A stretch of DNA of 59,866 nt from Escherichia coli. GTDB lineage: Bacteria > Pseudomonadota > Gammaproteobacteria > Enterobacterales > Enterobacteriaceae. The notes under the pieces are model-generated. The model did no database searches. It was not told the origin of the DNA and worked only from the letters and a program-made list of their open reading frames with translations. The position numbers were made by a program, and so were the translations under genes. Every line of letters begins with the position of its first letter. The first letter of the stretch is position 1. Location: assembly GCF_003334385.1 (NCBI RefSeq), contig NZ_QOWN01000029.1. One strand, 5' to 3'. Shown here piece after piece: positions 7,817-20,980 of the stretch.

Positions 7817-9178
<1,362 letters not shown>

Positions 9179-10519: not shown

Positions 10520-11513
10520 ATGAGTCAGAATACGCTGAAAGTTCATGATTTAAATGAAGATGCGGAATTTGATGAGAACGGAGTTGAGGTTTTTGACGAA
10601 AAGGCCTTAGTAGAAGAGGAACCCCAGTGATAACGATTTGGCCGAAGAGGAACTGTTATCGCAGGGAGCCACACAGCGTGTGTTGGACGCGACTCAGCTT
10701 TACCTTGGTGAGATTGGTTATTCACCACTGTTAACGGCCGAAGAAGAAGTTTATTTTGCGCGTCGCGCACTGCGTGGAGATGTCGCCTCTCGCCGCCGGA
10801 TGATCGAGAGTAACTTGCGTCTGGTGGTAAAAATTGCCCGCCGTTATGGCAATCGTGGTCTGGCGTTGCTGGACCTTATCGAAGAGGGCAACCTGGGGCT
10901 GATCCGCGCGGTAGAGAAGTTTGACCCGGAACGTGGTTTCCGCTTCTCAACATACGCAACCTGGTGGATTCGCCAGACGATTGAACGGGCGATTATGAAC
11001 CAAACCCGTACTATTCGTTTGCCGATTCACATCGTAAAGGAGCTGAACGTTTACCTGCGAACCGCACGTGAGTTGTCCCATAAGCTGGACCATGAACCAA
11101 GTGCGGAAGAGATCGCAGAGCAACTGGATAAGCCAGTTGATGACGTCAGCCGTATGCTTCGTCTTAACGAGCGCATTACCTCGGTAGACACCCCGCTGGG
11201 TGGTGATTCCGAAAAAGCGTTGCTGGACATCCTGGCCGATGAAAAAGAGAACGGTCCGGAAGATACCACGCAAGATGACGATATGAAGCAGAGCATCGTC
11301 AAATGGCTGTTCGAGCTGAACGCCAAACAGCGTGAAGTGCTGGCACGTCGATTCGGTTTGCTGGGGTACGAAGCGGCAACACTGGAAGATGTAGGTCGTG
11401 AAATTGGCCTCACCCGTGAACGTGTTCGCCAGATTCAGGTTGAAGGCCTGCGCCGTTTGCGTGAAATCCTGCAAACGCAGGGGCTGAATATCGAAGCGCT
11501 GTTCCGCGAGTAA
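10520..11513 (+). pseudogene. rpoS: RNA polymerase sigma factor RpoS (sigma-S), frameshifted allele
   Basis: ATG at 10520 encodes [10 protein letters not shown]...EEEP then reads CAG TGA (stop at 10628-10630). The rest of RpoS (from ...[14 protein letters not shown] to ...EALFRE) continues in the +1 frame to 11513. The span is 994 nt = 993 + 1, consistent with a single extra C in the run at 10622-10625. Confidence 0.85.
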
Positions 11514-11526
11514 GTAAGCATCTGTC

Positions 11527-11560
11527 AGAAAGGCCAGTCTCAAGCGAGGCTGGCCTTTTC
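11527..11560 (+). terminator. Rho-independent terminator downstream of rpoS
   Basis: GC-rich hairpin AAAGGCCAG...CTGGCCTTTTCTG followed by T-run. Confidence 0.7.
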
Positions 11561-11569
11561 TGTGCACAA

Positions 11570-11600
11570 TAAAAGGTCCGATGCCCATCGGACCTTTTTA
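11570..11600. terminator. Bidirectional hairpin terminator between convergent rpoS and ygbN
   Basis: AAAAGGTCCGATG-CCCATCGGACCTTTTTA: perfect stem flanked by A-run and T-run. Confidence 0.7.
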
Positions 11601-11606
11601 TTAAGG

Positions 11607-12971
11607 TCAAATTACCGCCCATACGCACCAGGTAATTAAGAATCCGGTAAAACCGAGAATGGTCGTTAACACTGTCCAGGTTTTCAGACCGTCTGCTACC
11701 GATAACCCCAGATATTTGGTCACAATCCAGAACCCTGAGTCATTAATATGTGACGCACCAAGCCCACCAAAGCAGGCTGCCAGCGTCACCAATACGCACT
11801 GAATCGGATTCAATCCCATCACCGCTTCTGAGAGTAACCCGCCGGTTGTCAGTATTGCTACGGTTGCTGACCACTGCGATGCACGCAGCGCCAGTGAAAT
11901 AATAAATGCGGCTGGTAACAGAGGCAGGTCAATCATTTGTAGCATGTTGGCAAGGGCTTTGCCGACGCCCGATTCCACCAGCACTTTGCCAAATACCCCT
12001 CCAGCACCAGTAACCAAAATCACTACCGCCGCAGTAGGAAGCGCTGAGCCCATAATGTCGCTGGTGTGTTGTAAGCTCCAGCCGCGACGTAAAGCCAATA
12101 ACCAGAATGCCAGCACCAGCGCAATCATTAGAGCTACCATTGGTGAGCCGATCAGCTGTAGCGTACCAAGCAGGGGATGCGAAGGCGGCATCAGTGTTGC
12201 GGAAACCGTACCCGCCATGATAATCGCGATAGGAATAACAATTAGCGAGGTGACCAGCGCGACGCCCGGTGGATTTATTTTATCGCTTAATTTTGTCGCG
12301 CCTTCCTCACTGGCCGGAGCCAGTTGCATCTGTTCCAGTACTTCTACTGACATCGCATATTGGCGCTTATTGATTATTTTCGCTGCAAAGTAGCCAACAA
12401 CCCCTACGGGAATAGAAATCGCAATACCGATGATGGTTAGCCAGCCGATGTCTGCGTGGAGTAACCCCGCTGCGGCGACAGGGCCTGGATGCGGCGGTAC
12501 CGCCACGTGAACAGTGAGCATGATCCCAGCGACAGGCAGGCCAAATTTGAGTGGCGATATTTTGGCAACCTTGGCAAAACCGTAAATGATTGGCGCAAGA
12601 ATAATAAAGCCGACATCAAAGAAGACGGGAATACCGAGGAAGAACGCTGCCAGAGTCAGCGCAGCGATAGTTCGTTTGTCACCTAACTTGCGACTGAAAT
12701 AATTAGCCAGTGACTCTGCACCACCAGAGTGTTCGATCATACGCCCCAGCATAGCGCCCAGACCAATAATAATAGTGACGGAACCAAGCACACCGCCCAT
12801 CCCGGCGATCATCACTTTACCCACTTCGCCCGCCGGTATACCCGCCGCAAGTGCGACTAACAGGCTGACGAGGAGCAGAGCAACGAATGGTTGTACCTTT
12901 GCCTTGATGACCAGCAGCAACAGCATGATTACGCCAGTTAACGCAATGCATAACAATGTAATTGTGGACAT
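11607..12971 (-). CDS. ygbN: GntP-family permease (putative tetronate / acid-sugar transporter)
   Basis: 454-aa polytopic membrane ORF resembling gluconate:H+ symporter family. Confidence 0.85.
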   Translation of the reverse strand: MSTITLLCIALTGVIMLLLLVIKAKVQPFVALLLVSLLVALAAGIPAGEVGKVMIAGMGGVLGSVTIIIGLGAMLGRMIEHSGGAESLANYFSRKLGDKRTIAALTLAAFFLGIPVFFDVGFIILAPIIYGFAKVAKISPLKFGLPVAGIMLTVHVAVPPHPGPVAAAGLLHADIGWLTIIGIAISIPVGVVGYFAAKIINKRQYAMSVEVLEQMQLAPASEEGATKLSDKINPPGVALVTSLIVIPIAIIMAGTVSATLMPPSHPLLGTLQLIGSPMVALMIALVLAFWLLALRRGWSLQHTSDIMGSALPTAAVVILVTGAGGVFGKVLVESGVGKALANMLQMIDLPLLPAAFIISLALRASQWSATVAILTTGGLLSEAVMGLNPIQCVLVTLAACFGGLGASHINDSGFWIVTKYLGLSVADGLKTWTVLTTILGFTGFLITWCVWAVI

Positions 12972-13059
12972 GGGAAACCCTGTCTGAAAGTTATAGTTAA
13001 CCTACCCCATCCGTAGATGGGGGGATGTATGGGTACGTTGTAATTAGGGATTTAACGAA

Positions 13060-13836
13060 TTAGCGCCAGGCGTCAAACCAGCCAAGCCCTTCTTCGGTGA
13101 GGCCACGAGGTTTATATTCACAACCGATCCAGCCCTGATATCCCACCTCATCGAACAGGCGGAACAGCCACGGATAGTTGATTTCTCCATCGTCCGGTTC
13201 ATGTCGATCAGGTAGTCCGGCAATTTGTACGTGCGCATATTTCCCGGCGTAGTCGCGGATTAAATGCGTCAGGTTGCCATCTACTTTTTGCGCATGAAAA
13301 GTATCTAGTTGAATAAACACGTTATCTCGCGCAACTTCTTCAACAATAGCCAGTGCCTGATACTGGCTGGAGAAGAGATAATGAGGCTTAACGCCGGGGC
13401 TGAGTGCTTCAACTAATATTCGCTTGCCGTGTGGCGCAAAGCGGTCGGCAGCGTAGCGGAGATTATCGATAAATACTGCCCGGTACCGTTCAGCATCTTC
13501 GCCAGCGGGCACGACGCCTGCCATCACATGGACTTGTTCACAATTGAGCGCCAATGCATATTCCAGTGCCAGGTCGATGTCTGCGTGTGCTTCGTGCTCA
13601 CGTCCGGGAAGGGCGGATAATCCCCATTCCCCCGCATTAATATCTCCGGGAGCGGTATTGAACAGCGCCAGTGTCAGATGGTTTTGCTCCAGTTGCTTTT
13701 GGATTTGCAGGGTGGAGTAGTCATAGGGAAACAGAAATTCCACAGCATCGAACCCGGCTTTTCGCGCTGCGGCGAAGCGTTCAATAAAAGGCACTTCGGT
13801 GAACATCATGGATAAATTAGCTGCAAAACGAGGCAT
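13060..13836 (-). CDS. ygbM: 2-oxo-tetronate isomerase (hydroxypyruvate isomerase family, TIM barrel)
   Basis: 258-aa ORF starting [21 protein letters not shown], Hyi-like. Confidence 0.85.
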
Positions 13837-13840
13837 TGCA

Positions 13841-14479
13841 TTAACTCCTTAATTCCGCAATTTCACCTGCGGTCAGATAACGGATCGGGCGGTCACCGAG
13901 AATAAAAATCAGCTTTGCCGTTTCCTCCAGCTCTTCCATATTGTTGGCGGCTTCTTGCAGGCTTTCACCGCAAACCACTGGGCCATGATTTGCCAGTAAA
14001 AAAGCCTGATTGTCTGCTGCCAGTTCCGCCAGATCCTGTGCGATGCGTTTATCGCCCGGTCGGTAATAAGGCACCAGCGGGACATTTCCCATCCGCATCA
14101 CCACGTATGGTGTGAACGGACGAATAACGTTGCTGCTGTCCAGCCCTTGCAGGCAGGAAAGCGCCGTCGACCATGTGCTGTGCAAATGCACCACCGCTTT
14201 ACAACGCGGATTGTTGCGATACAGCGCCAGATGAAAGAGCACCTCTTTCGAGGGTTTGTCACCACTTAACCATTCGCCATCCGCGGCGACTTTGGAAAGC
14301 CGCTGCGGATCGAGATTGCCCAGGCATGAACCTGTCGGTGTCGCCAGTAAATTCCCGTCAGGTAAAAGCAGCGACAGATTGCCAGCCGAACCGGTTGCAT
14401 AGCCGCGCTGAAAGAATGAACTGGCAATCCGCGTCATCTCCTCTCGCAAAGACTGCTCTACTTTTGCGAAATCGCTCAT
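13841..14479 (-). CDS. ygbL: 3-oxo-tetronate 4-phosphate decarboxylase (class II aldolase/adducin family)
   Basis: 212-aa ORF, class II aldolase fold; 4-nt overlap with ygbK. Confidence 0.85.
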
Positions 14480-15738
14480 GATAAAAACTCTCTTTGGGCT
14501 CGTGAAAAAAAGGCGTCATCACCGAAGTTGCCAGATTTAAGGGCGAGTGAGACAGGCTTATCCAGTGCGTTTACCCACGGCACGCCGGGGGAAATGGTTG
14601 GGCCAATATGAAACCCTTTTATTCCCAGGCTCTGTGTGACTACGCCGGAGGTCTCACCGCCTGCGACAATAAAGCGTGTCACGCCTTCCGCTGCTAACCG
14701 CGCCGCTAGTTGAGAAAACAGTGTTTCTACTGCCTGACTGGCTTTTTGTGCACCGTATTGCTGTTGAATTGCTGCCAATGCGTCAGTGCTGGCGGTGGCA
14801 AAAACCAGTGGAGCAAGTACACTTTCCTGGCCCAGAACCCACTCTGCCAGTTCGTGTGCATAAGCGGCCAGAGTTTCAATTGAGAGGCAGCGTGCCACAT
14901 CAACTTCACGGGCTGGTGCAATTTGACGGTAATGTGCTACCTGGCGGTTGGTCATTTGAGAGCATGAACCGGAGAGCACTACGCCGCGCCCAGCGAGCGG
15001 ACGCCCTGCTTTGCGAGCCTGGTTACCGTTTTCTTGCGCCCACTGCCGGGCCAGGCCAATCGCCAGACCAGAACCGCCCGTTACCAGTGGGGCATCGCGC
15101 AAGGCTTCTCCCTGAATTTCCAGATGGTGTTCGGTCAGCGCATCAAGCACCGCGTAGCGGTAGCCCTCTTGCTGTAAGCGAGCCAGCTCTTGACGAACGG
15201 CATCCACACCTTGTTCGAAAACATGTGCCGAAACGACGCCGCAGCGCCCTGTGGATTGCGCTTCAACCAGACGGGGAAGATAGCTGTCGGTCATGGGATT
15301 TACCGGGTGATGGCGCATCCCGGATTCGGCCAGCAGTTGATTCATTACGAACAAATACCCCTGATAAACCGTACGTCCGTTGACCGGCAGGGCCGGAGAG
15401 AAGACCGTAAACGGCGTGTCGAGAGCATCCATTAAGGCATCGGTAACCGGGCCAATATTACCTTTCGCCGTACTGTCGAAAGTAGAGCAGTATTTGAAAT
15501 AGATCTGTTTGCAACCTTGCTGTTGCAACCAGCTCAGAGCCGCCAGCGATTGCTGTGTGGCTTCAACCACTGGACAGGAGCGCGTTTTCAGGCTGATCAC
15601 CAGTGCGTCGATTGCTTCCGGCATTTTACCTGTTGGAACACCGTTAATTTGTACCGTTGGTAGACCGTTTTCCACCAGAAAACTGGCGATATCCGTCGCG
15701 CCGGTAAAATCATCGGCGATAACGCCAATCTTGATCAT
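14476..15738 (-). CDS. ygbK: 3-oxo-tetronate kinase (DUF1537 four-carbon acid sugar kinase)
   Basis: 420-aa ORF starting MIKIGVIADDFTGATD (DUF1537 signature). Confidence 0.85.
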   Translation of the reverse strand: MIKIGVIADDFTGATDIASFLVENGLPTVQINGVPTGKMPEAIDALVISLKTRSCPVVEATQQSLAALSWLQQQGCKQIYFKYCSTFDSTAKGNIGPVTDALMDALDTPFTVFSPALPVNGRTVYQGYLFVMNQLLAESGMRHHPVNPMTDSYLPRLVEAQSTGRCGVVSAHVFEQGVDAVRQELARLQQEGYRYAVLDALTEHHLEIQGEALRDAPLVTGGSGLAIGLARQWAQENGNQARKAGRPLAGRGVVLSGSCSQMTNRQVAHYRQIAPAREVDVARCLSIETLAAYAHELAEWVLGQESVLAPLVFATASTDALAAIQQQYGAQKASQAVETLFSQLAARLAAEGVTRFIVAGGETSGVVTQSLGIKGFHIGPTISPGVPWVNALDKPVSLALKSGNFGDDAFFSRAQREFLS

Positions 15739-16643
15739 GATTTCGCTCCCGGTAGAGTGATGCCAGAGAAAATCTTGATAACTGCGCTATCGTCTTCTTT
15801 CCCGTAACCCGCGTTACTGGCGCTGGTGAACATATTCAATGCTGTTGAGGCCAATGGCAGCGGGAAGTGCAGGGCTTTGGCTGTATCGGCAACCAGACCA
15901 AGATCCTTAACAAAAATATCGACGGCTGAATGCGGGGTGTAATCGCCATCCACCACATGACGCATCCGGTTTTCGAACATCCAGGAATTTCCGGCGGCAT
16001 TGGTCACGACGTCATACATCACATCCAGCGGGATCCCCGCACGGGCTGCAAGTGCCATCGCTTCGGCTCCGGCAGCAATATGTACGCCCGCTAACAACTG
16101 GTGAATAATTTTTACGGTCGAACCTAGTCCCGGTTCTGCACCTATGCGATAAACTTTTCCGGCAACGGCTTCCAGCACGGGTGCCAGTCGTTCAAAGGCA
16201 ATATCGCTACCGGAGGCCATGATAGTCATTTCACCGTTAGCGGCTTTTACTGCACCACCAGAAACTGGCGCATCCAGCATTTCCAGATCGAATCCAGCCA
16301 GAGCGGTAGCAATTTCTTGCGCATCAGCACTAGCGATAGTGGAAGAAACCATTACTGCCGTACCGGGTTTCAGATGTTGTGCAACGCCTGTTTCACCAAA
16401 CAGCACCTGTTTAACCTGGGCCGCATTGACCACCAGCACCAGCAGTGCGTCCAGTTTTTCGGCAAACGTCGCGGCGTTATCAGAAACCCCGCAAGCACCT
16501 GCCTCTTTCAACGTAGCGCAGGCATTGCTGTTCAGGTCTGCGCCCCAGGTAGAAAGACCTGCGCGGACACATGACAGTGCTGCTCCCATTCCCATTGACC
16601 CTAAGCCAACGATACCGACATGAAACTCAGATCCCGTTTTCAT
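15735..16643 (-). CDS. ygbJ: L-threonate dehydrogenase (3-hydroxyisobutyrate dehydrogenase family)
   Basis: 302-aa ORF with N-terminal Rossmann motif VGIVGLGSMG. Confidence 0.85.
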   Translation of the reverse strand: MKTGSEFHVGIVGLGSMGMGAALSCVRAGLSTWGADLNSNACATLKEAGACGVSDNAATFAEKLDALLVLVVNAAQVKQVLFGETGVAQHLKPGTAVMVSSTIASADAQEIATALAGFDLEMLDAPVSGGAVKAANGEMTIMASGSDIAFERLAPVLEAVAGKVYRIGAEPGLGSTVKIIHQLLAGVHIAAGAEAMALAARAGIPLDVMYDVVTNAAGNSWMFENRMRHVVDGDYTPHSAVDIFVKDLGLVADTAKALHFPLPLASTALNMFTSASNAGYGKEDDSAVIKIFSGITLPGAKS

Positions 16644-16838
16644 CTGCTCTCCTTGTTAATTTAAGTGATATTTTGTTTGATATTGTGAATATAAGCGCTG
16701 GAAGATAACGATATGGTGATCTGATTCACATAAATTAACATTGTGTGTTATTTTATGTGAACTAAGCGTTAGTTGCGCCGCGCACGTTTCGCAGGCAAAT
16801 AGCGTAGAATGTCAGCAGGACAAAGGAAGGAGCAAAAG

Positions 16839-17606
16839 TTGATACCCGTAGAGCGTCGCCAAATCATCCTTGAGATGGTAGCTGAAAAAGGCATTGTCAG
16901 TATTGCTGAACTAACGGACAGAATGAATGTGTCACATATGACCATTCGTCGGGATTTACAAAAACTGGAGCAGCAGGGAGCCGTTGTGCTGGTGTCCGGA
17001 GGCGTCCAGTCTCCGGGACGCGTGGCGCATGAACCTTCTCATCAGGTAAAAACTGCGCTGGCAATGACGCAAAAAGCGGCTATTGGCAAGCTGGCGGCAA
17101 GTCTTGTTCAGCCGGGAAGTTGTATCTATCTGGATGCGGGAACGACCACGTTAGCGATAGCACAGCATCTGATTCACATGGAGTCACTGACTGTGGTCAC
17201 AAACGATTTCGTTATTGCGGACTACTTGCTCGACAACAGTAATTGCACAATTATTCACACTGGCGGTGCAGTGTGTCGGGAAAACCGTTCCTGTGTCGGG
17301 GAAGCCGCTGCGACCATGCTGCGCAGCCTGATGATTGATCAGGCTTTTATTTCTGCATCGTCATGGAGTGTGCGGGGGATTTCTACGCCAGCGGAAGATA
17401 AAGTCACGGTGAAACGGGCGATTGCCAGTGCCAGCCGCCAGCGAGTTTTGGTCTGTGATGCGACGAAATATGGTCAGGTGGCGACATGGCTGGCGTTACC
17501 ATTAAGCGAGTTTGATCAGATTATTACAGACGACGGTTTGCCGGAGAGTGCCAGTCGCGCGCTGGTGAAGCAGGATCTCTCTTTGCTGGTAGCGAAAAAT
17601 GAATAA
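16839..17606 (+). CDS. ygbI: DeoR-family transcriptional regulator of the ygb tetronate cluster
   Basis: DeoR HTH (SIAELTDRMNVSHMTIRRDLQKLE). Start placed at TTG 16839, preceded by strong RBS AGGAAGGAG at 6-nt spacing; the in-frame ATG at 16809 has no RBS and would add 10 residues. Confidence 0.75.
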   Translation: MIPVERRQIILEMVAEKGIVSIAELTDRMNVSHMTIRRDLQKLEQQGAVVLVSGGVQSPGRVAHEPSHQVKTALAMTQKAAIGKLAASLVQPGSCIYLDAGTTTLAIAQHLIHMESLTVVTNDFVIADYLLDNSNCTIIHTGGAVCRENRSCVGEAAATMLRSLMIDQAFISASSWSVRGISTPAEDKVTVKRAIASASRQRVLVCDATKYGQVATWLALPLSEFDQIITDDGLPESASRALVKQDLSLLVAKNE

Positions 17607-17629
17607 TGGCCTGCAATAACACCGGGTTA

Positions 17630-17655
17630 CTCATGCTTCACAGAAGAAGCATGAG
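17630..17655. terminator. Hairpin terminator between convergent ygbI and pphB
   Basis: CTCATGCTTC-ACAGAA-GAAGCATGAG perfect 10-bp stem, followed by T-rich run on + strand. Confidence 0.6.
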
Positions 17656-17656
17656 A

Positions 17657-18313
17657 CTACTTTATTTTATAAAATGACAGCCGCCCGCTGTTCGGCGATC
17701 CGGTATCAATATAAATCTGGTTAGCGAACGTCTGAATGTTATCAAACATCATATGTCCAAATATAAAATAATCAGCGCCGTTTATTTGTTGTAACTCGCC
17801 ATTAAGCGATTTCTGCACACGATCAACAGGCCAGAGTAATTCGCTCTCCGCTATTTCTTTACCAAAGAGATATTCACTCCCCGGATAATCTGCATGTGCG
17901 ATGGCATATTTTATGTTGTCGTTAGTGATTTCAATAATATGTGGAAGGTGATGGAATTTCAGCAACAGATCTATTGCCTCTTGTTGCTCTGAATCATTTA
18001 AATCGAAAAACCAGTCACCACCGCTGGCAAGCCACATATTGCCATCGCCAGTTTCGAATGCCTCAAGCGCCATCGCTTCGTGGTTGCCTTTAACCGACGT
18101 AAACCAGGGTTGGTTTAGCAGGCGCAGGACGTCAAGACTCTCCGGTCCACGATCAATATTATCGCCGACAGAAATAAGTAAGTCGATTTCGGGGAAAAAA
18201 GAGAGTTGATGTAAGCGGGATTGTAATAACTGATATTCACCATGAATATCACCAACGACCCATATATGGCGATAGTGATGGGCATTGATTTTTTGATAGC
18301 GTGTAGATGGCAT
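17657..18313 (-). CDS. pphB: Serine/threonine protein phosphatase 2 (calcineurin-like metallophosphatase)
   Basis: 218-aa ORF with metallophosphatase motifs GDIHG, GDNIDRG, GNHE. Confidence 0.9.
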   Translation of the reverse strand: MPSTRYQKINAHHYRHIWVVGDIHGEYQLLQSRLHQLSFFPEIDLLISVGDNIDRGPESLDVLRLLNQPWFTSVKGNHEAMALEAFETGDGNMWLASGGDWFFDLNDSEQQEAIDLLLKFHHLPHIIEITNDNIKYAIAHADYPGSEYLFGKEIAESELLWPVDRVQKSLNGELQQINGADYFIFGHMMFDNIQTFANQIYIDTGSPNSGRLSFYKIK

Positions 18314-18418
18314 GGTTTTACCCTGTAAAATAAGCTTTCCTATTATACAGGGTGTTTTTATTTTATTCGTCAGTTGTCGTTAATATTCCCGATAGCAAAA
18401 GACTATCGGGAATTGTTA

Positions 18419-20980
18419 TTACACCAGGCTCTTCAAGCGATAAATCCACTCCAGCGCCTGACGCGGGGTGAGTGAATCCGGATCAAGATTTTCCAGAGCT
18501 TCGACCGCAGGCGAAGTTTCTTCTGGTACTGACAGCAAAGACATTTGCGTACCATCCACTTGCGTAGCGGCGGCGTTCGGCGAAATGCTTTCCAGCTCAC
18601 GCAGCTTTTGCCGTGCGCGCTTAATAACCTCTTTTGGCACGCCTGCCAGAGCTGCAACCGCCAGGCCGTAGCTTTTGCTCGCCGCGCCATCCTGCACGCT
18701 GTGCATAAAGGCAATGGTGTCGCCGTGCTCCAGTGCATCGAGATGCACGTTAGCGACGCCTTCCATTTTCTCCGGTAACTGGGTCAGCTCGAAATAGTGG
18801 GTAGCAAATAACGTCAATGCCTTAATCTTATTCGCCAGATTTTCCGCGCACGCCCACGCCAGCGACAGACCATCGTAGGTGGACGTTCCACGCCCGATCT
18901 CATCCATTAACACCAGACTGTATTCGGTGGCGTTATGTAAAATATTGGCGGTTTCAGTCATCTCCACCATAAAGGTTGAGCGCCCGGACGCCAGGTCATC
19001 TGCCGCGCCTACGCGGGTAAAGATGCGATCGATAGGTCCAATCTCGACTTTTTGTGCCGGTACATAGCTGCCGATGTAGGCCATCAGCGCAATCAGTGCG
19101 GTCTGGCGCATATAGGTACTTTTACCGCCCATGTTCGGACCGGTGATGATCAACATGCGGCGCTGCGGCGACAGATTCAGCGGGTTGGCGATAAATGGCT
19201 CATTCAGTACTTGTTCAACTACCGGATGGCGACCTTCGGTAATGCGAATGCCCGGTTTATCAATGAAGGTCGGGCAGGTGTAGTTCAGGGTATAGGCCCG
19301 TTCCGCCAGGTTAACCAGCACGTCGAGTTCCGCCAGCGCGCTCGCGCTCTGTTGCAACGCTTCCAGATGCGGCAACAGCAGGTCGAACAGCTCTTCATAA
19401 AGCTGTTTTTCCAGTGCCAGTGCTTTGCCTTTTGAGGTGAGAACTTTATCTTCGTACTCTTTTAGCTCTGGAATGATGTAGCGCTCGGCGTTTTTCAGCG
19501 TCTGGCGACGCATGTAGTTGATGGGTGCCAGATGGCTTTGCCCACGGCTGATTTGAATGTAGTAGCCGTGCACCGCATTAAAGCCAACTTTCAGCGTGTC
19601 CAGGCCGGTACGTTCACGCTCGCGGACTTCCAGACGCTCCAGATAATCGGTCGCGCCGTCAGCCAGCGCGCGCCACTCATCCAGCTCTTCGTTATAGCCC
19701 GATGCGATAACACCACCGTCGCGTACCAGCACCGGCGGTGTGTCGATGATTGCTCGCTCCAGCAGATCGCGCAGCTCGGCAAACTCGCCCATCTTCTCAC
19801 GTAGCGCCTGTACCGGTGCACTATCGACAGTTTCTAACTGCGCACGCAGCTCCGGCAGTTGCTGGAAAGCGTGGCGCATACGGGCCAGATCGCGTGGGCG
19901 AGCAGTTCGTAAAGCCAGACGTGCCAGAATGCGTTCCAGGTCGCCGACCTGACGCAGTACCGGCTGTAGCCCGGCGGTGAAATCCTGCAATGCGCCAATA
20001 GTTTGCTGGCGCTCAAGCAACACGCGGGTATCGCGCACTGGCATATGCAGCCAGCGTTTCAGCATACGGCTGCCCATCGGCGTGACGGTGCAGTCGAGCA
20101 CAGAAGCCAGCGTATTTTCCGCACCACCCGCCAGGTTCTGGGTGATTTCCAGATTACGACGCGTCGCGGCATCCATAATGATGCTGTCCTGCTCACGTTC
20201 CATGGTGATGGAACGAATATGCGGCAGAGTCGTACGTTGGGTATCTTTCGCATACTGCAACAGACAACCGGCAGCACAAAGTCCGCGCGGCGCGTTCTCG
20301 ACGCCAAAACCGACCAGATCGCGGGTCCCAAATTGCAGATTCAACTGCTGGCGCGCGGTGTCGATTTCAAACTCCCACAGCGGGCGACGGCGCAGGCCGC
20401 GACGGCCTTCAATTAACGACATTTCAGCAAAATCTTCTGCATACAGCAGTTCCGCAGGATTAGTGCGTTGCAGTTCTGCCGCCATCGTTTCGCGGTCAGC
20501 CGGTTCGCTCAGGCGAAAACGCCCGGAACTGATATCCAGCGTCGCGTAGCCGAAACCTTTGCTGTCCTGCCAGATAGCCGCCAGCAGGTTGTCCTGACGC
20601 TCCTGCAACAGGGCTTCATCGCTGATGGTGCCTGGCGTAACGATACGCACAACTTTGCGCTCAACCGGACCTTTGCTGGTCGCCGGATCGCCAATTTGTT
20701 CGCAGATGGCAACGGACTCTCCCTGATTCACCAGTTTGGCGAGATAGTTTTCCACCGCATGGTAGGGAATCCCCGCCATCGGGATCGGCTCTCCCGCCGA
20801 AGCACCGCGTTTGGTCAGTGAAATATCCAGCAGTTGCGACGCGCGTTTTGCGTCGTCATAAAACAGTTCATAAAAATCACCCATCCGGTAAAACAGCAGG
20901 ATCTCGGGATGCTGGGCTTTCAGCCTGAGATACTGCTGCATCATGGGCGTATGGGCGTCGAAATTTTCTATTGCACTCAT
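18419..20980 (-). CDS. mutS: DNA mismatch repair protein MutS
   Basis: 853-aa ORF with Walker [10 protein letters not shown] and mismatch-binding N-terminal domain. Confidence 0.97.

Follow-up and report, generated by a model that had tools for sequence, protein, structure and literature searches.

The ygbI/ygbJKLMN locus of an Escherichia coli lineage: a predicted four-step L-threonate pathway and a YgbN G367W substitution that most likely impairs uptake

L-Threonate is a breakdown product of ascorbate. The chemistry of the tetronate pathway was reportedly worked out by Zhang et al. (PNAS, 2016) in Ralstonia eutropha H16 and others. In two papers that cite Zhang et al. 2016, the route is given as four steps, catalysed by LtnD, OtnI, OtnK and OtnC, that lead to dihydroxyacetone phosphate (DHAP) (PMC12540250, PMC12994016), and otnK is essential: R. 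eutropha and Brucella from which it is deleted no longer grow on L-threonate or D-erythronate (PMC10580937). Here we describe the ygb cluster located at positions 11607-17606 of a 59,866-nucleotide stretch of the Escherichia coli contig NZ_QOWN01000029.1 (the window, to whose first nucleotide all coordinates refer unless another sequence is named). This locus is very probably the E. coli ygbI/ygbJKLMN four-step tetronate route for L-threonate, in which a glycine-to-tryptophan substitution at position 367 of the permease YgbN (G367W) most likely weakens or abolishes uptake. The biology of the cluster is already known, as a reading of the same DNA made without database searches (the sequence-only reading) had remarked: RefSeq and the annotation of the K-12 reference already name the genes in this way and the chemistry has been described, and the finding of the locus matters little in itself.

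At the level of equivalogs, the window encodes the same four enzyme families as the pathway of Zhang et al. 2016 (LtnD/DenD, OtnI, OtnK, OtnC), with DHAP as the predicted product, but it differs from the L-threonate/D-erythronate pathway in lacking the second, D-erythronate entry dehydrogenase. The Brucella cluster is similar in possessing homologues of the kinase, of the isomerase, of the decarboxylase and of LtnD, under the control of a repressor that is responsive to the acid sugars and binds to the promoter of ltnD; unlike the window, it includes denD, a transporter of the MFS family instead of a GntP permease, and a regulator encoded inside the operon rather than divergently (PMC10580937). 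Two bypasses (PMC12540250) have the same substrate, the same end product and a DUF1537-type kinase: a three-step route (2-OtnK/2-OtnC; Arthrobacter, Arabidopsis LTD), which proceeds without OtnI and uses an F_bP_aldolase-type decarboxylase, and the Ltn3D route, in which an SDR enzyme replaces LtnD and OtnI. Because the window possesses OtnI together with an Aldolase_II-type OtnC, it encodes the four-step route. The ygbI-ygbJKLMN locus of E. coli K-12 MG1655 (b2735-b2740) is like that of the window in its genes and their order, in being bordered by rpoS and, at the opposite end, by pphB-mutS, and in its three operator half-sites, with only 14 differences in 6.4 kb; position 367 of YgbN is glycine in K-12 and tryptophan in the window.

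Six full-length open reading frames (ORFs) lie exactly at 11607-17606, with rpoS on one side and pphB/mutS on the other (in a wider frame, nlpD-rpoS versus pphB-mutS). Five are co-directional on the minus strand: ygbN (11607-12971; 454 amino acids, aa), ygbM (13060-13836; 258 aa), ygbL (13841-14479; 212 aa), ygbK (14476-15738; 420 aa) and ygbJ (15735-16643; 302 aa). The sixth, ygbI, is divergent on the plus strand and extends from 16809 or 16839 to 17606 (265 or 255 aa). Overlaps of 4 nucleotides (nt), ATGA, join ygbJ to ygbK and ygbK to ygbL; the gap between ygbL and ygbM is 4 nt, and ygbN is preceded by an 88-nt spacer. A dehydrogenase, an isomerase, a kinase, a decarboxylase, a transporter and a regulator are thereby located together. 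Families were assigned by the curated equivalog cut-offs of NCBIfam, supplemented by Pfam and by alignment to entries of the PDB; all six proteins exceed the curated cut-offs of their models, and models of related families remain below theirs.

YgbJ is identified as LtnD, an L-threonate 2-dehydrogenase of the 3-hydroxyisobutyrate dehydrogenase family (NF043037, 474 bits against a cut-off of 350); it misses the cut-offs for tartronate-semialdehyde reductase and 3-hydroxyisobutyrate dehydrogenase (NF008592, 197 <397; TIGR01692, 156 <292), and its nearest PDB entry is 3G0O. YgbM is identified as OtnI, the 2-oxo-tetronate isomerase (NF043033, 396 bits; cut-off 325), and falls below both hydroxypyruvate isomerase cut-offs (TIGR03234, 298 <353; NF007444, 241 <465); its fold is a Hyi-like, xylose-isomerase-like TIM barrel (Pfam AP_endonuc_2, 1.7e-49), and PDB entry 1K77 is E. 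coli YgbM itself. YgbK is identified as OtnK, the 3-oxo-tetronate kinase formerly designated DUF1537 (NF043035, 598; cut-off 350), and scores under the cut-offs of its sister kinases (D-threonate kinase, 132 <450; OiaK, 109 <700). Its SBD_N domain (PF07005, 7.5e-76) covers residues 4-228 and its NBD_C domain (PF17042, 7e-42) residues 253-411; it aligns end to end with PDB entries 3DQQ, 1YZY (Haemophilus influenzae HI1011) and 5DMH, all of which share its C-terminal LALKSGNFG motif, and it is predicted to be an ATP-dependent 3-oxo-tetronate kinase. YgbL is identified as the decarboxylase OtnC (NF043034, 335; cut-off 250), a member of Pfam Aldolase_II whose nearest PDB entries are 6VOP and 6VOQ; its best aldolase model reaches only 103 (<250), and the cut-offs for FucA, AraD and MtnB are not attained. 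YgbN is a permease of the GntP family (ion-transporter superfamily; NF007332, 823, cut-off 524; TIGR00791, 340, cut-off 293; Pfam GntP_permease) and is presumed to import the four-carbon (C4) acid sugar. YgbI is a DeoR-family regulator (NF040890, 482; cut-off 400) that aligns to the model over residues 11-263 of the long ORF.

These results bear out most of what the sequence-only reading had proposed. The six genes have the positions and strands that it gave them, and NCBIfam and Pfam agree with its assignment of a GntP permease, a Hyi-like isomerase, a class II aldolase-family protein, a DUF1537 kinase, a member of the 3-hydroxyisobutyrate dehydrogenase family and a DeoR regulator. The profile search that it had suggested as a check on YgbK and YgbM recovered SBD_N and NBD_C in the former and the TIM barrel in the latter, and its match to the tetronate pathway is strengthened by the passage of all four enzymes over the cut-offs of the tetronate-enzyme equivalogs. 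RefSeq calls the ygbM product an 'HPr family phosphocarrier protein', and NF007441, the matching NCBIfam model, has the same description. Because the protein is a TIM barrel that passes the 2-oxo-tetronate isomerase equivalog, the name given to its product appears to be a misannotation, by now propagated through thousands of genomes.

The pathway in the window would proceed as follows: entry of the acid sugar through YgbN, a GntP-type symporter with an elevator fold; NAD+-dependent oxidation at C2 by YgbJ (LtnD) to 2-oxo-tetronate; isomerization by YgbM (OtnI) to 3-oxo-tetronate; phosphorylation of the C4 hydroxyl by YgbK (OtnK) at the expense of ATP; and decarboxylation by YgbL (OtnC) to DHAP, which would enter glycolysis. 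Translation of ygbJKLM would be coupled through the 4-nt overlaps and the 4-nt gap, with ygbN following after 88 nt. The enzyme activities and growth phenotypes have been shown in other bacteria, and binding by YgbI and derepression of ygbJKLMN in K-12; the assignment of L-threonate as substrate in E. coli is drawn from strong homology and pathway logic, and the rest of the mechanism in the window is read from its sequence.

The transporter gene carries the one base that sets this locus apart from its closest relatives. Codon 367 of ygbN (11871..11873, minus strand) is TGG (Trp) rather than GGG (Gly), owing to base 11873, which is A in the window and C in strain FORC 064 and is the sole difference from the closest complete genomes, FORC 064 included, over the 6.4-kb stretch. 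Of 3356 complete genomes with a match, none contains the exact 61-mer of the window. Glycine occupies the position in all of 105 diverse GntP representatives (28-56% identity) and in all 73 other rows of alignment A3; it is the invariant glycine of the motif R-x3-G-S-x-T-V-A, which YgbN of the window fails to conserve. In the AlphaFold model of YgbN, which is a confident one (pLDDT 91), residues 367-368 lie at a helix break, with helix 351-366 before it and helix 369-379 after it, and a fold search matches the model to the elevator transporters of the DASS, TRAP and AbgT families; searching the PDB by sequence returned no structure of the GntP family at E<=1. In the DASS, TRAP and AbgT families, the site for substrate and ions is formed by the tips of hairpins. 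Residue 367 is predicted to occupy the tip of such a re-entrant hairpin.

The W367 allele is present on 11 public contigs, which are drafts or assembled from reads, and the exact protein appears under several accessions. Across 6.4 kb, no base separates the window from the contigs of SRR7819145 and GCA_012738655.1; the contig from ERR1948963 has W367 and differs only by the absence of an extra C in the neighbouring rpoS gene (discussed below). Sequencing error as the origin of G367W and of the extra C in rpoS was rejected, since both are reproduced in data of independent origin, the run SRR7819145 and the assembly GCA_012738655.1, and since ERR1948963 combines W367 with an intact rpoS. G367W is a real allele of a small E. 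coli lineage, in which it has persisted long enough for sublineages with and without the rpoS frameshift to arise. Judging from the model and from the invariance of the glycine, the substitution most likely impairs uptake by YgbN, weakening or abolishing it, and leaves the four enzymes untouched. It is very unlikely that W367 instead re-tunes the substrate range or the coupling of YgbN, which would make it a naturally occurring switch of specificity in the hairpin at a GntP transporter's binding site. Thus, where the sequence-only reading described all six genes as intact, the statement is valid for the reading frames, which are open and include a ygbK of full length unlike that of K-12, and does not extend to YgbN, altered at an invariant glycine. 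The natural substitution provides a ready-made pair of alleles with which to probe what YgbN transports.

The full-length ygbK of the window contains a run of five C residues (14587-14591, minus strand) where MG1655 has four (8483-8486 of the MG1655 sequence L002). The shorter run frameshifts YgbK of K-12, which is 388 aa rather than 420 aa in length and lacks the conserved C-terminal LALKSGNFG segment. The ygbK allele of the window is found exactly in 3382 genomes and the four-C allele in 371, and among the matches listed for the latter, 40 of 40 are K-12 laboratory derivatives or BLR(DE3). Because the frameshift shortens ygbK, a gap of 91 nt separates ygbK from ygbL in K-12, whereas the two genes overlap by ATGA in the window. 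K-12 has been described as having separate ygbJK and ygbLM operons (PMC8464067), a description that may reflect the ygbK lesion. The published experiments on ygb regulation and on tartrate were performed in the K-12 background, with its kinase frameshift, and most wild E. coli do not have that frameshift. Since the lesion in the kinase gene is specific to its lineage, K-12 is a poor model for the pathway.

Regulation of the cluster is predicted to depend on YgbI and on a set of candidate operators. In RefSeq and NCBIfam, ygbI starts at the TTG codon at 16839 (255 aa), with the Shine-Dalgarno sequence AGGAAGGAG 6 nt upstream; an alternative ATG is located upstream at 16809 (265 aa). The good Shine-Dalgarno sequence and the beginning of the NCBIfam alignment at residue 11 make TTG 16839 the likely start. 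The spacer between the divergent ygbJ and ygbI genes is 195 bp long (16644-16838) and contains all three copies of the motif TCACWTAAWWTAACA in the 59.9-kb window, where 0.42 are expected and none of 100 shuffled sequences reaches three. One copy, candidate half-site A (ATCACTTAAATTAACA, 16654..16669, minus strand), is situated between the ygbJ promoter region and the ribosome-binding site, just upstream of the latter. The other two, candidate half-sites B and C (16725-16740 and 16746-16761), form an inverted repeat, TTCACATAAATTAACA-5 nt-TGTTATTTTATGTGAA (16725..16761), with arms of 16 nt that are 94% complementary. This palindrome overlaps a promoter-like site facing ygbI that was detected in a promoter scan (TTCACA-18-TATTTT, 16725-16754, plus strand), an arrangement that fits autoregulation. 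The same three half-sites are present in K-12 MG1655 and conserved in Escherichia albertii, and the orthologous spacers of Succinivibrionaceae contain related sites of the form TTCACA-W-rich-TAACA. The three TCACWTAAWWTAACA copies are likely to be YgbI operators, consistent with the single YgbI site detected by ChIP-exo in K-12 between ygbI and ygbJ, where it overlaps the ygbJ promoter (PMC8464067); deletion of ygbI in K-12 increases expression of ygbJKLMN (PMC8464067), and a YgbI iModulon has been described (PMC6892915). Bound to the three half-sites, the YgbI repressor would block the promoters of ygbJ and of ygbI itself until an effector released it. The proposed operator motif is directly testable.

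Among 5426 complete E. coli genomes, the 6.4-kb stretch is covered to 80% or more in 4577 and matched with at least 99% identity in 4072; the stretch is genuine E. coli chromosome, and ygbN directly adjoins rpoS as in the K-12-like arrangement. The region between o454 (ygbN) and nlpD is a known mosaic that includes o454-negative strains (PMC4209514), and the E. coli genomes without the cluster fit this mosaic of the mutS-rpoS region. The six-gene order with its divergent regulator is likewise present in E. albertii and, with proteins that are 52-71% identical, in Anaerobiospirillum, in Succinivibrio and in one further genome of the Succinivibrionaceae; in Desulfovibrio sp. An276 the five-gene order is kept up to the end of the contig, which is reached before any regulator. 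Because gene order and divergent regulator are kept in distant bacteria, the cluster behaves as a conserved functional unit. That gut Succinivibrionaceae and the Desulfovibrio isolate An276 share the ygbJKLMN order, at the same range of identity, is a hint that the entire cassette has spread horizontally between gut anaerobes.

The identity of the substrate may be questioned on two sides. The sequence-only reading had named L-threonate together with D-erythronate; the L-threonate half of this label stands, by virtue of the LtnD-type YgbJ, and the D-erythronate half lacks an entry enzyme. The cluster contains a single dehydrogenase, its neighbours rpoS and pphB leave no room for a second, and a gene for D-erythronate 2-dehydrogenase (DenD) is absent, as judged by the gene content of the cluster only; therefore, only L-threonate entry is encoded. 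D-Erythronate use would require enzyme promiscuity or an unlinked gene, and it is rather unlikely that the cluster also handles this acid through a side activity of YgbJ or a dehydrogenase encoded elsewhere, with OtnI, OtnK and OtnC accepting the intermediates of both acids. The downstream enzymes are indeed common to the two branches (PMC12994016), and some Brucella strains with a homologous cluster use D-erythronate and not L-threonate (PMC10580937), but the pathway as described has a separate D-erythronate 2-dehydrogenase (PMC12994016), and the Brucella cluster possesses denD in addition to ltnD (PMC10580937). Among the genes beside otnK in Symbiopectobacterium, a betaproteobacterium and Aureimonas, none is named D-erythronate dehydrogenase; the neighbours are components of TRAP/ABC transporters and unrelated dehydrogenases. 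The other contender is tartrate, in its L- or meso-form, or some other C4 hydroxy-acid, which would be imported by YgbN and oxidized by YgbJ as the physiological substrate, the tetronate annotation having been transferred solely by homology. The sole known E. coli phenotypes of these genes are growth on L-tartrate and meso-tartrate, and only after loss of ygbI (PMC8464067, PMC6452873): MG1655 without ygbI grows on L-tartrate and the wild type does not (PMC8464067), and both of two independent evolution lines on meso-tartrate gained ygbI mutations together with overexpression of ygbJKLMN (PMC6452873, PMC6892915). Because ygbK is frameshifted in the K-12 strains concerned, this growth is probably independent of the kinase, and our literature search found no report of E. 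coli growth on L-threonate by means of these genes. Nevertheless, tartrate is quite unlikely to be the natural substrate: since growth appears only once the repressor is lost, tartrate is not an inducer of the operon, and the authors treat the growth as a promiscuous activity (PMC6452873); with a carboxylate at C4, tartrate would offer no hydroxyl group there to OtnK, leaving the coupled and conserved kinase and decarboxylase unexplained; and all four enzymes both score as tetronate-enzyme equivalogs and stay together across distant bacteria. According to a review, loss of the operon repressor is also needed for growth of E. coli on the C4 hydroxy-acid 2,4-dihydroxybutyrate, of which derepressed ygbN is the putative importer (PMC12709889); the review names this repressor 'ygbJ', apparently meaning ygbI.

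Besides the tartrate phenotypes and the absence of growth reports in the literature search, several further points weigh against the assignment of the locus to L-threonate catabolism: the kinase of the K-12 reference is truncated; generic scans for sigma-70 promoters and for terminators perform at chance level (7 promoters versus 5.5 expected), so that no site is assigned as the ygbJ promoter; ~16% of complete genomes (about 850 of 5426) lack the cluster, which, together with an insertion in ygbL of strain ML35 (see below), indicates that selection on the E. coli cluster may be weak; and the effect of G367W is a prediction. Some of these points would suit a remnant that is largely cryptic and in decay, situated in the mosaic region between mutS and rpoS, where o454-negative strains are known (PMC4209514) and where lesions would accumulate, with G367W as one more neutral step. 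Such a remnant would account for the genomes without the cluster and for three independent lesions (the K-12 ygbK frameshift, the IS1-flanked insertion in ML35 ygbL, and G367W itself), and the 6 non-synonymous and 5 synonymous coding changes between the window and K-12, tiny as these numbers are, do not suggest strong purifying selection. Decay is nonetheless unlikely, given that the cluster is retained whole in 84% of complete genomes, with an identical full-length ygbK segment in 3382; that all reading frames are open in the window; that conservation of the regulator, of the operators and of gene order extends to the Succinivibrionaceae; and that one RNA-seq comparison has the Salmonella orthologues of ygbJKLM among its most upregulated genes, with increases of 18- to 49-fold (PMC8341724).

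The convergent spacer between rpoS and ygbN contains two strong hairpins within 11532..11599: the rpoS terminator hairpin (~11532-11556) and a bidirectional hairpin that ends ygbN (11571-11599), both identified by folding. The spacer folds with energies of -40.2 kcal/mol on the minus strand and -44.4 kcal/mol on the plus strand (z = -6.4 and -8.1, respectively). A hairpin in the ygbM-ygbN spacer was considered as an attenuator and rejected, its stability being like that of shuffled sequence (z = -0.74), and an Rfam scan of 11300-18500 at E<=0.1 detected no RNA family. Long antisense ORFs in ygbK, ygbJ and ygbN were rejected as genes for want of support.

The neighbouring rpoS gene (10520-11513) possesses an extra C that turns CCC into CCCC at codon 35 (run 10622-10625). 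The resulting +1 frameshift reads P35-Q36-stop, giving a product of 36 aa, and the longest downstream in-frame ORF restarts at TTG 10638 (291 aa). Of 5254 complete E. coli genomes with a match, none contains the 65-mer of the window at this site. Because the frameshift is present in the SRR7819145 and GCA_012738655.1 contigs and absent from the sister contig of ERR1948963, it is real and recent within the W367 lineage, in which it constitutes a null or attenuated rpoS allele. Over window positions 5001-30000, besides the rpoS indel and G367W, three single-base differences from FORC 064 are found, at 19931, 26106 and 29488; one is synonymous, in codon 350 of mutS, and the other two are in the hyp and hyc regions. 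Over 25 kb, the complete genome nearest to the window is that of E. coli ML35 (sequence L003). ML35 was considered as the source strain and rejected, since it encodes G367 YgbN, has an intact rpoS and carries an interrupted ygbL. The interruption is a 2.8-kb insertion flanked by two copies of IS1 (4527-7328 of L003), whose cargo comprises a gene of the CDP-glycerol glycerophosphotransferase family and one hypothetical gene.

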